Source of the DNA: Spirochaetota bacterium
GTDB taxonomy: Bacteria; Spirochaetota; GWE2-31-10; JAFGQB01
Reading direction: 5' to 3'
Assembly (NCBI GenBank): GCA_016935915.1
Contig: JAFGQB010000058.1
Span: 2,496 to 66,495, forward strand
DNA: 64,000 nucleotides
Part shown: positions 55,329-58,208 of the stretch, in pieces
Numbering within the stretch: the stretch's first letter is position 1
How the letters are laid out: each line of letters opens with the position of its first letter
Made by a program: the position numbers and the translations under genes
Notes under the pieces: generated by a model
What the model was told of the DNA's origin: nothing
Databases searched by the model: none
The model's input: only the letters and a program-made list of their open reading frames with translations

Positions 55329-56759
55329 ATGAACAAGATCAGTGAATTAAATTACAATGATATAATAAATCTTCTTCAAAAAAATGAAATATCATGCAAG
55401 GAATTGATCGAAGATGCCGTAGATCAAATAAATAAATATGATAAGATCATTGAATCATATATTTCAATATTTGATAAAAAGGAACTTATTAAAAAAGCCA
55501 TAGAAAGTGATAAAAGATGGAAAAACAAAATGCCGATGAGCCTGATCGATGGCATCCCTATAGCTGTAAAAGATAACATCCATGTTAAAGGCATAAATAC
55601 CACATGCGGATCAAACATCTTAAAAAATTACAATCCACCTTTTAATGCTACGGTAACTGAATCAATAATATCTGGCGGAGGAATAATAATCGGTAAAACC
55701 AATCTTGATGAATTTGCCATGGGGTCAACTACAGAAACTTCAGCTTTTTTGCACTCCAAAAATCCGTGGAATCCAGATAAGGTTGCAGGCGGCTCTTCAG
55801 GAGGTTCAGCAGCCGCAGTATCCTCAGGAATGGCTGTATTGGCTTTAGGCTCAGACACAGGAGGGTCTATCAGACAGCCTGCATCATTTTGCGGAGTTAC
55901 AGGATTAAAGCCTACTTATGGGCTGGTTTCAAGATACGGACTGGTTGCATATGCATCTTCGCTTGATCAGATCGGACCGATATCAAAGGATATATATGGT
56001 CTTGCGGTTTTATTGAACCTTATATCAGGTTTTGATAAAAACGATTCTACTTCGATAAATGCAATAAAAAAAGATTATACAAAATTAATTGGCAAAGATA
56101 TTAAAAATAAAAAAATTGCTGTATTTCCAGAATTATATAAAGAAGGTATTTCATCAGAAGTGCATGATAATTTTATTAAAACACTGGATTTACTTCAAAA
56201 TCAAGGCGCTGTAATCAAAGAAATATCCTTCCCTGCCCTTCAATATGTCATTTCTACATATTATTTTATAGCAACAGCAGAAGCAAGCTCAAACTTATCA
56301 CGATATGACGGGGTAAAATACGGATACCGCAGTCAAAAACAGGAAAATTATGAACAGATGCTCTATTCTACACGTTCCAATGGTTTCGGCAAAGAAGTAA
56401 AAAAAAGAATAATATTGGGAAGTTTTGTATTATCATCAGGATATTATGACGAATACTATAGAAAAGCACAAAAGATCAGAAAATATATAATGGATGAATT
56501 GAAAAAAGTCTTCATTGATTTTGATGCAATTGCCATGCCCGCAACTCCGGATATTGCTTATGATCTCAATGAGAGCATTAATGATCCTCTTAAAATGTAT
56601 TTGTCAGATGTAACAACAGTCCTGGCAAATTTAGCCGGAGTTCCGGCAATATCAATACCTTCAGGTGTCATCAATAATATGCCTATTGGCATTCAATTAA
56701 TGGGAAGACCACTTGAAGAGGATGTTTTGTTTCAAATAAGTAAGAAAATAACTGATGAT
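55329..56759 (+). other. GatA (amidase-signature glutaminase) domain of the fusion
   Basis: Amidase signature and Ser-cisSer-Lys triad context are present. Length matches stand-alone GatA (~480 aa). Confidence 0.9.
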
Positions 56760-58208
56760 ATAAAAATCGATTTTACTCCTGATCTTGAAAGATTAAAAAC
56801 TTTTAACTTTTCAGGTAAAAAATTCAAAAAAAATGAAGAAACAGAACAGCCAACAGTTATATATTCAAAGGATAAAATAAAGCAAATTTCGAAATCTTAT
56901 AATAACAGAACAATTAGTATTAACCGTGTTTTATGCAATGAATTAAAAGATCATATCAACAGATATGTCTGTTTATCAGGATGGATCCATAAAATCAACA
57001 GTTTAGGAGGCATTGAATTTTTCATATTAAGGGACAGAACAGGCATGACACAGCTTGTCATAGAATCCAATATCAATACCGAAAAAATCACCCCGGAAAC
57101 CGTAGTTGAAATAAAAGGACTGGCAGCAAAAGAGGAAAGAAGTCCTTATGAAAATATAGAAATTAAAGTAAACGAAATCAAAATACTTTCATTTGCAAAC
57201 AACAACATACCCCTGAATATTTATGCTTCATATGATAACATTAATCTTCCAACAATTTTAGAAAACAGACCAATTTCAATACGAAACACAAAAACATTGA
57301 AAATATTCAAAATACAGTCAGAGTTCATAAGACTTTTTTCAGAATATTTAAGAAATAATAATTTTACAGAAATTAAAACACCAAAATTAATATCAAGCGG
57401 CACTGAGGGAGGAACAAATATTTTTGAAGTTAAATATTTTGAAAAGAATGCATTTTTGGCTCAATCACCTCAGTTTTATAAACAAATAATGGTAGGCAGC
57501 GGTTTTGAAAGAGTATTTGAAATAGGTCCTGTTTTCAGAGCCGAAATGCATAATACTAACCGCCATTTAAATGAATATACAAGCATGGATATTGAAATGG
57601 GATTCATCAATGATGAACAGGATATCATTGATATGCAGGAAGGATTAATAAAATATATGTTCAAAGAAATTATCAAATGCCAAAGGGAAATCCTTGATGA
57701 ATTTAATGTTGAAATTCTTATACCTGATAATATTCCAAGGATTCATTTTCTGGAAGCATTAAACATAGCAGAACAATCAGGCATTTCTGATATGGACGGT
57801 GACATTTCACCGGAAGGAGAAAGGGTAATATGTGATTTTATGGAAAAAGAAAAAAAGTCTTCATTTGTTTATATAATCGGGTACCCGATGAAAAAACGAC
57901 CTATGTATACTATGCCTGATGAAAGACTTCCCGGTTATTCAAGATCTTTTGACCTTTTATTTAAAGGTCTGGAGATAACAACAGGAGGTCAGCGTATTCA
58001 TGATTATAATATGCTTAAAAAAAGCATGAAAAAAAAAGGATTTAATCCAAAGGAATTTAAAGATTATCTGCAATGTTTTGAATTCGGAATGCCGCCTCAC
58101 GGAGGTCTTGGCATGGGCTTAGAGAGAATTACCATGAAGCTGTTAAATTTAAAAAATATCAGGGAAGCAACTCTCTTTCCCAGAGACAGAAACAGGATCT
58201 CACCTTAA
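55329..58208 (+). CDS. gatA: Fusion protein: Asp/Glu-tRNA amidotransferase subunit A (GatA) followed by archaeal-type aspartyl-tRNA synthetase
   Basis: Uninterrupted 959-codon ORF. Residues 1-477 are GatA ([31 protein letters not shown]). Residues ~529-959 are class IIb AspRS (OB fold, [52 protein letters not shown]). Confidence 0.9.
   Translation: [959 protein letters not shown]
56913..58205 (+). other. Archaeal/eukaryal-type AspRS domain of the fusion
   Basis: Anticodon-binding OB fold plus class II motifs 1-3. The C-terminal [10 protein letters not shown] is characteristic of AspRS rather than AsnRS. Confidence 0.85.

Follow-up and report, generated by a model that had tools for sequence, protein, structure and literature searches.

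Does a Spirochaetota genome encode an asparagine transamidosome whose enzymes are joined covalently, and is such an arrangement real, conserved and in keeping with known complexes? The question is raised by the window analysed here, a stretch of 64,000 nucleotides (contig JAFGQB010000058.1, positions 2,496 to 66,495), in which the gene gatA::aspS joins the glutaminase GatA to an archaeal-type aspartyl-tRNA synthetase (AspRS) in one open reading frame (ORF). The transamidosome is the standard case of substrate channelling that shields the genetic code against a tRNA mischarged on purpose. Known transamidosomes are non-covalent complexes of varied stoichiometry and stability, and those with an archaeal-type AspRS depend on tRNA for their assembly. 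The gene that follows gatA::aspS joins the amidotransferase subunits GatC and GatB. Judged from their sequences, the two adjoining genes together encode all protein parts of an asparagine transamidosome, and we consider it likely that they represent a complete one, made of two polypeptides instead of four.

The fusion gene encodes two complete enzymes

The fusion gene and its enzyme modules are the following:

55329..58208, + strand: gatA::aspS fusion gene of 959 codons and a stop codon, beginning with ATG and without interruption
55329..56762, + strand: GatA (glutaminase) module, residues 1-478, defined by TIGR00132, invariant columns and structural superposition
56967..57188, + strand: anticodon-binding OB fold of AspRS, residues 547-620 (PF01336, 42.5 bits), with the motifs GWIH and ERSP
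57252..58187, + strand: class IIb catalytic core of AspRS, residues 642-953 (PF00152, 305.5 bits), without GAD insertion

A sequence-only reading of the window had proposed that this ORF holds GatA and an archaeal-type AspRS, each of them complete, which was borne out by Pfam, by the NCBIfam equivalog models and by invariant motifs. Pfam found the three expected families on the 959-aa protein: amidase (residues 25-466, 464 bits), the anticodon-binding OB fold and tRNA-synt_2. The gatA model TIGR00132 scored 590.8 bits against a cutoff of 481.1 and placed residues 15-477 on positions 4-463 of its 466, while each of the remaining amidase models stayed under its own cutoff. The C-terminal half passed the cutoffs of NF003483, aspartate--tRNA(Asn) ligase (559.2 bits against 353; residues 532-959), and of TIGR00458, aspS_nondisc (441.2 bits against 368.4). 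Models for asparaginyl-tRNA synthetase (AsnRS) did not reach theirs (NF003037, 243.1 against 414; TIGR00457, 232.2 against 342.6), nor did the bacterial aspS models (222.9 against 443; 210 against 373.85), and the lysS models were far below. For comparison, a genuine AsnRS from a related locus (L163) scores 669.6 bits against the asnS cutoff of 414. With the AsnRS and LysRS models under their cutoffs, the C-terminal half is thus neither of these two enzymes.

Bacterial-type AspRS models match the fusion protein in two separated stretches only. The AspRS module, about 430 aa long, aligns end to end with the structures 1N9W (422 aa) and 1B8A (438 aa), which shows that the GAD insertion is absent. 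In an alignment of 24 divergent fusion homologues at 53-86% identity (alignment A1), the GatA residues K81 (AVKDN), S156/S157 (GGSSGGS) and S180 (GSDTGGSIR) are invariant; we take them to be the Ser-cisSer-Lys catalytic triad of the amidase signature, as known for the family in general. The AspRS residues QSPQ (712-715), FRAE of motif 2 (736-739) and GLGMGLER of motif 3 (926-933) are invariant in the same alignment, and Pro685 of motif 1 is conserved. The active-site and signature motifs on which the sequence-only reading had relied are present in the window protein and do not vary among the homologues.

The fusion is found in independent assemblies and in many species

A single ORF of this kind could be an assembly or sequencing artefact that conceals two adjoining genes, gatA and aspS. 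The window is AT-rich (GC about 28-30%), and the linker between the two enzymes contains runs of A, which are prone to indels on some platforms. However, the same uninterrupted 959-aa ORF is present in the independent Logan assembly of SRR13394437 (L164), whose strain is nearly, though not fully, the same (99.6% identity in the GatA half). Full-length proteins of this architecture, 954-1011 aa long and 53-100% identical, represent about 68 clusters drawn from NCBI, JGI, ENA and Logan, and the linker is in frame and 50-64 aa long in each of the 24 aligned sequences. For the census, a junction-only alignment (A2) covering the GatA C-terminus, the linker and the OB fold was compared with 185,579 GTDB species representatives. 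At least 35 species gave an end-to-end match, a number that is a lower bound because the scan relies on peptide patterns. They comprise 34 metagenome-assembled genomes (MAGs) labelled Spirochaetota, among them high-GC MAGs and a 4.8-Mb single contig, and the complete genome of the isolate Ca. Uabimicrobium amorphum. The continuity of the ORF across the linker is thus upheld by the SRR13394437 assembly and by homologues from many projects and assemblers, and the probability of an artefact is negligible. Nor is the fusion peculiar to this window, since the same architecture is carried by these species and clusters.

A HMMER search against 1.84 billion representatives clustered at 50% identity returned one full-length representative together with fragments. 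A single cluster at this level fits one origin, and on sequence grounds the fusion family is compact and probably arose once. The carriers stem from groundwater, digester and gut metagenomes and therefore do not look like thermophiles.

In NCBI and JGI the fusion protein is labelled 'GatA' only, and its partner 'GatB' only. Because these labels hide the fusions, automated metabolic reconstructions would report aspS of the non-discriminating type and gatC as missing. The novelty assumed for the protein therefore stands in part: full-length homologues are numerous in the databases, but none is annotated as a fusion. A search of the full-text literature found no description of a natural GatA-AspRS or GatC-GatB fusion, which agrees with the earlier remark that its author was not aware of a described GatA-AspRS fusion. 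What is new is the recognition of the fusion and not the sequence itself.

Two groups of candidates were rejected. Apparent full-length matches in Clostridia were tblastn pieces joined over separate aspS, gatC, gatA and gatB genes, and P0233 (914 aa, with an AspRS-like C-terminus), considered as a distant second fusion, comes from a 62-Mb scaffold and is a tandem AspRS of a eukaryote. An unfused gatA-aspS-gatC-gatB order was sought beside the closest free AspRS (Latescibacterota, 52% identity), and no gat neighbours were found there. Other apparent natural fusions of Gat subunits occur in metagenomes, joining GatA to a GatC domain or GatA to GatB domains (P0081, P0082, P0087, P0091, P0093, P0102 and P0117, 568-591 aa; P0103, 714 aa).

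The linker lacks start codons and keeps its length

Two features were located between the enzyme modules:

56763..56924, + strand: interdomain linker, residues 479-532, rich in Lys, Ser, Glu and Thr, without in-frame ATG, GTG or TTG
56868..56897, + strand: conserved short helix, residues 514-523, from alignment columns and AlphaFold2 (AF2) helix prediction

The linker had been placed correctly by the sequence-only reading (nt 56762 is the last of residue 478, and nt 56913 the first of residue 529). In-frame ATG, GTG or TTG codons from residue 458 to residue 573 are limited to ATG458 and TTG467, both in GatA, and ATG573 in the OB fold. Initiation of a free AspRS in the linker of the window protein is thus impossible, and the prediction that the linker contains no ATG and that the next Met lies inside the OB fold proved right. 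The linker sequence is poorly conserved among the 24 homologues; 12 of them have a Met somewhere in the linker, at positions that are not conserved. Conserved length combined with variable sequence is as expected of a flexible tether under selection. The sole conserved part is the helix region with the family motif Y-[ST]-x-E-x-I-x-x-x-S-x-S-Y, visible as conserved columns in the Y524/S521 region of alignment A1 and at Y100 of alignment A2. This helix at the end of the linker could be a docking or tRNA-contact element.

In an AF2 model computed from the 24-sequence alignment (mean pLDDT 74, pTM 0.54), both enzyme bodies fold, and residues 495-511 have a pLDDT below 50, so that the linker is predicted to be disordered. 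Foldseek placed the N-terminal half on the GatA chains 2DF4_A, 3H0L_A, 4WJ3_A and 3KFU_E (target TM-score 0.85-0.87), the last two of which come from the two transamidosomes of known structure, and the C-terminal half on archaeal-type AspRS. No PDB chain spanned both halves in this search, and the query-normalised TM-score never exceeded 0.45.

GatC and GatB are fused as well

The gene downstream of gatA::aspS has the following features:

58219..58223, + strand: Shine-Dalgarno sequence GAGGA of gatC::gatB, from the sequence
58229..60016, + strand: gatC::gatB fusion gene, 595 codons plus stop
58253..58504, + strand: GatC module, residues 9-92 of the second protein (TIGR00135, 51.7 bits, cutoff 47.1; PF02686, 36.9 bits)
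58574..60007, + strand: GatB module, residues 116-593, catalytic cradle and YqeY tail domain (NF004014; PF02934, 121-408; PF02637, 447-591)

The gatB model NF004014 scored 666.3 bits against a cutoff of 414 and covered residues 117-591. Only 20 nt separate the stop codon of gatA::aspS from the start codon of gatC::gatB, which implies a single transcription unit. GatC-GatB proteins form about 90 clusters (581-630 aa) and occur in the same taxa as GatA-AspRS, including two Uabimicrobium genomes. All partner proteins, that of Uabimicrobium included, have an N-terminal extension that is homologous to the GatC module of the window (34-51% identity); in distant partners the module is seen by this homology and not by profile. 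All four modules of Uabimicrobium are 35-61% identical to those of the window. In about 30 of 40 loci the GatC-GatB gene lies directly downstream of the fusion.

Some close relatives have 'short' GatB proteins (471-481 aa), which were considered as products of a secondary fission. This was rejected because in locus L203 the GatC module is present in frame directly upstream, which indicates that the GatB start had been miscalled at an internal Met. The GatC-GatB gene of that locus (L203:4674-6446) stands alone and is not beside any GatA-AspRS gene.

The fused AspRS probably belongs to the non-discriminating class

A non-discriminating AspRS by definition charges tRNA(Asp) as well as tRNA(Asn). 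The solved structure closest to the AspRS half is AspRS2 of Thermus thermophilus (1N9W; also chains of the 3KFU transamidosome), with an E-value of 4e-110, and the second closest is the discriminating AspRS of Thermococcus kodakarensis. According to alignments with 1B8A, 1N9W and 1WYD, the window AspRS has a His (in GWIH) at the position of T. kodakarensis W26 and a Pro (in ERSP) at that of K85. T. thermophilus AspRS2 and the S. tokodaii AspRS have the same His and Pro, and T. kodakarensis has Trp and Lys. Loci of Clostridium and Treponema with a free archaeal-type AspRS gene likewise encode His and Pro. The changes W26H and K85P would be specificity determinants that govern the acceptance of tRNA(Asn), reportedly going back to work by Tumbula-Hansen et al. 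in 2002 and Feng et al. in 2005.

Since both curated equivalogs were passed and T. thermophilus AspRS2 is the nearest relative, the predicted archaeal type held, and the sequence places the enzyme in the class annotated as non-discriminating. The assignment of the fused AspRS to this class, made from profile and nearest relative, is well supported.

AsnRS coexists with the fusion in relatives

A genuine asnS gene lies directly upstream of the fusion in L163/L170 (L163:6499-7911, the gene used for comparison above, and L170:1227-2636). Another one (L205:3001-4386) is on the same 4.8-Mb contig as the fusion P0059, at a distance of 1.6 Mb. A third asnS is a candidate case, on a contig equal in length to one with a GatC-GatB hit. 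With asnS present in at least two fusion-bearing genomes, the fused pathway is not the sole route to Asn-tRNA in those relatives, and the earlier proposal that Asn-tRNA(Asn) is made by the indirect pathway finds no support as a general rule. In the window genome, no asnS, asnA/B, second aspS or other class IIb synthetase gene was found within the 64 kb, and no glnS is visible there.

One MAG with a fusion locus (L171) also carries a free-standing archaeal-type AspRS of 445 aa (L039:5941-7278). This enzyme has a Gln at the position of T. kodakarensis W26, a Pro at the second position and a longer anticodon-binding loop, a combination that does not mark it as discriminating or otherwise, and it may be the housekeeping AspRS. 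The U1-A72 pair is the identity element by which GatCAB recognises tRNA(Asn). It was sought near the fusion, and no tRNA gene was found in the window or in 37 fusion loci.

Thermus and Deinococcus possess AsnRS alongside an archaeal-type non-discriminating AspRS and GatCAB, which supply asparagine itself (PMC4206432). Because AsnRS genes coexist with the fusion, we regard tRNA-dependent synthesis of asparagine, by analogy with these bacteria, as the most likely role of the fused enzymes, ahead of a role as the sole source of Asn-tRNA.

A probable two-polypeptide transamidosome and its alternatives

The reading that we prefer, a complete asparagine transamidosome in two polypeptides, builds on the domain identities, the intact motifs, the conservation and pairing of both fusions, the linker, which is predicted to be disordered and has no start codon, and the coexistence with AsnRS. 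The first polypeptide would consist of the GatA glutaminase, a flexible tether of 50-64 residues and an archaeal-type AspRS of the non-discriminating class, and the second would unite the GatC 'belt' subunit with the GatB kinase/transamidase. Class II AspRS enzymes are obligate dimers. Together with the conserved Pro685 this leads us to expect that the AspRS module dimerises like other class II synthetases and that a (GatA-AspRS)2(GatC-GatB)2 particle would result, in which synthetase active sites and amidotransferases would be fixed at 1:1. The AspRS module would charge tRNA(Asn) with aspartate. The acceptor end would then shift to the GatB site, where the aspartate would be phosphorylated and subsequently amidated with ammonia freed by GatA from glutamine, and Asn-tRNA(Asn) would be released.

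Archaeal-type Asn-transamidosomes assemble in a tRNA-dependent manner and lack the GAD domain of bacterial AspRS (PMC9499178, PMC3367201). The tether might replace or reinforce this assembly of free archaeal-type AspRS with GatCAB, and it might keep the mischarged Asp-tRNA(Asn) off the elongation factor and stabilise GatCAB. In mycobacteria, destabilised GatCAB or transamidosomes lead to more mistranslation (PMC8406222), which makes a selective advantage of covalent stabilisation plausible.

Several observations weigh against a two-polypeptide transamidosome. A Tyr replaces the His of GWIH in 3 of the 24 aligned fusions, and the Pro of ERSP is missing in 5. That W26 and K85 act as a switch of tRNA(Asn) acceptance is, moreover, our assumption. 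The GatC-GatB gene does not adjoin the fusion in about six complete loci. The confidence of the AF2 model is moderate, and the packing of the domains is not reliable from it. Directly upstream of asnS, locus L205 encodes a 411-aa class IIb core without anticodon-binding domain (L205:1633-2868, + strand) that weakly resembles archaeal-type asparagine synthetase A, at 133 bits against a cutoff of 309; if this AsnA-like paralogue is real, it would weaken a role of the fusion as sole source of asparagine. A gatC-gatA fusion in Mycobacterium smegmatis impaired fidelity, with mistranslation and rifampicin tolerance (PMC7541841), which means that fusing Gat subunits is not automatically beneficial. 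Finally, it is we who infer complex formation, stoichiometry, the charging of tRNA(Asn), channelling and the physiological role.

A bolder version would make the particle an asparagine factory independent of translation, which assembles free of tRNA, uses tRNA(Asn) as a swinging arm, in the manner of tRNA(Asp) in fungal ErdS (see below), and is the sole source of asparagine, with separate AsnRS and AspRS enzymes serving translation. This appears unlikely to us. If true, the factory would be the first natural case of a whole tRNA-dependent amino-acid pathway in a two-chain machine of fixed stoichiometry, and would mean that a covalent tether can substitute for the scaffold-tRNA mechanism of the Thermus particle. 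Slightly less probable again is a neutral 'Rosetta stone' fusion in which a housekeeping AspRS serves mainly tRNA(Asp) and the amidotransferase mainly Gln-tRNA(Gln), with no channelling of Asp-tRNA(Asn). Such a division of labour would agree with the ability of a non-discriminating AspRS to charge both tRNAs, with the frequent dual specificity of bacterial GatCAB (PMC9499178), with the lack of a visible second aspS or glnS in the 64-kb window and with the AsnRS of relatives, owing to which Asn-tRNA need not come from the fused pathway. On the other hand, at least one fusion-bearing MAG has a second, free archaeal-type AspRS (L039, with the fusion in L171). This parallels Thermus, Deinococcus and the fungi that carry the AspRS fusion ErdS (see below), in which the specialised enzyme is the additional AspRS. 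A pair of coordinated fusions that persists in at least 35 species and reaches another phylum (Uabimicrobium) is hard to call neutral, and the nearest structural relative of the fused AspRS is the dedicated transamidosome synthetase of Thermus.

The fusion protein might also be made and then split in vivo, by proteolysis of the linker or by internal initiation, so that free GatA and free AspRS do the work and the fusion merely ensures co-expression. A linker that is predicted to be disordered would be open to proteases, and the Met residues in half of the homologous linkers could be taken in the same sense. But these Met positions are not conserved, and the window linker contains none of the codons ATG, GTG and TTG in frame. 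Co-expression can be achieved by translational coupling without any fusion, as in Clostridia, and the conserved length of the linker and the helix at its end argue for selection on a tether. The shared distribution of the GatC-GatB fusion suggests a structural and not a regulatory rationale. We therefore regard splitting in vivo as very unlikely.

If the two polypeptides do form a transamidosome, they would make the transfer of the acceptor end from AspRS to GatB accessible to structural and kinetic study in a simpler system of two chains. They would also provide a test by nature of whether fidelity gains from a fixed 1:1 stoichiometry and from covalent stabilisation, an idea prompted by the mycobacterial link between GatCAB stability and mistranslation, and a template for engineering compact modules for indirect aminoacylation. 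Ca. Uabimicrobium amorphum is cultured and its genome is complete, which opens the fusion to experimental study.

Genomic context

Two further features were noted upstream of the fusion gene:

53087..55192, + strand: type III glutamine synthetase gene, upstream neighbour (PF12437, PF00120, PF18318)
55254..55284, + strand: stable hairpin GUAGGGAC...GUCCCUAC, from the RNA fold of the 136-nt spacer between the glutamine synthetase and fusion genes

The product of glutamine synthetase is the amide donor used by GatA. The adjacency of the two genes is shared by the near-identical L164 alone; L161-L163 have other neighbours. The RNA fold of the spacer (55193-55328) has an energy of -26.4 kcal/mol (z = -4.0), and none of 200 shuffled sequences folds as well. 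The hairpin is not a T-box and is probably either a leader structure or the terminator of the preceding gene; no Rfam match was found in the window even at E<=1. A scan for sigma-70 promoters returned 37 sites where 25 are expected, a count that carries no information in DNA this AT-rich.

The rest of the window is ordinary chromosome, with genes for Lon, UvrB, PFOR, a long-form GreA, Rnf and Opp. The GreA homologue has 899 aa (35428-38127, + strand) and contains GreA domains only at residues 745-895; the N-terminal extension before them, about 740 aa long, matches no Pfam family. Two large ORFs have no Pfam family at E<=1e-5, one encoding 617 aa (12786-14642, - strand) and one 414 aa (38266-39510, + strand). 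The GC content reaches a local minimum of 0.184 at 14001-16000, compared with about 0.28 in the whole window.

Comparison with known systems

Three other systems combine an AspRS covalently, or two Gat subunits with each other. The model NF009460/PRK12820 (723 positions) catalogues a natural covalent link between AspRS and GatC in a bifunctional protein, so that joining AspRS covalently to the amidotransferase is, in principle, nothing new. Together with the clostridial T-box operons described below, such AspRS-GatC proteins come nearest as precedents. Judged from the name and length of the model, that family joins a bacterial-type AspRS to GatC, whereas in the window an archaeal-type AspRS is attached to the C-terminus of GatA and GatC is attached to GatB. 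NF009460 (cutoff 1379 bits) is not among the best 25 families of the window protein, and the full-text literature search found no paper on this family.

Fungal ErdS, the ergosteryl-aspartate synthase, is an AspRS fused to a DUF2156 aminoacyl-tRNA transferase, and thus to the consumer of its own product, as is the case here (PMC13219428). In ErdS the tRNA stays bound and its CCA end swings between the active sites, and the fungi invariably retain a canonical AspRS besides (PMC13219428). A second AspRS is likewise present in one of the fusion-bearing MAGs. ErdS differs in being eukaryotic and in transferring its aminoacyl group to a sterol, so that the product leaves translation, whereas the product expected here is a correctly charged tRNA. 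The gatC-gatA fusion of M. smegmatis is also a covalent fusion of amidotransferase subunits (PMC7541841). It is, however, a spontaneous mutation selected in the laboratory and joins another pair of subunits, and it is not a conserved natural architecture.

The transamidosome operon of Clostridia (L090, L093) encodes an archaeal-type AspRS, about 46-49% identical to that of the window, along with each of the three Gat subunits. Its four genes are unfused and run aspS, gatC, gatA, gatB, whereas the window has two fusions in the order gatA~aspS, gatC~gatB. The clostridial operons are preceded by T-box leaders (L093:6470-6729, 115.4 bits; L090:6587-6927, 108.7 bits), while the window has neither a T-box nor any other Rfam element. 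A T-box-controlled transamidosome operon of Clostridium acetobutylicum was reportedly described by Saad et al. in 2012.

A further close parallel is the Asn-transamidosome of T. thermophilus (3KFU; AspRS2, 1N9W), which has four protein modules in common with the window proteins. Its GatA superposes on the N-terminal half of the fusion with a target TM-score of 0.85, and its AspRS2, the closest solved structure, lacks the GAD insertion like the AspRS of the window. AsnRS coexists with the pathway in fusion-bearing relatives, as it does in Thermus (PMC4206432). In Thermus, four separate polypeptides are held together via tRNA, including a non-substrate scaffold tRNA (PMC3367201), whereas here the partners are covalent pairs, known from their genes. 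Unlike in Thermus, the covalent tether could make assembly independent of tRNA. We see in the two genes what is probably a conserved and apparently unrecognised two-polypeptide transamidosome, a logical extension of the known complex rather than a new principle.

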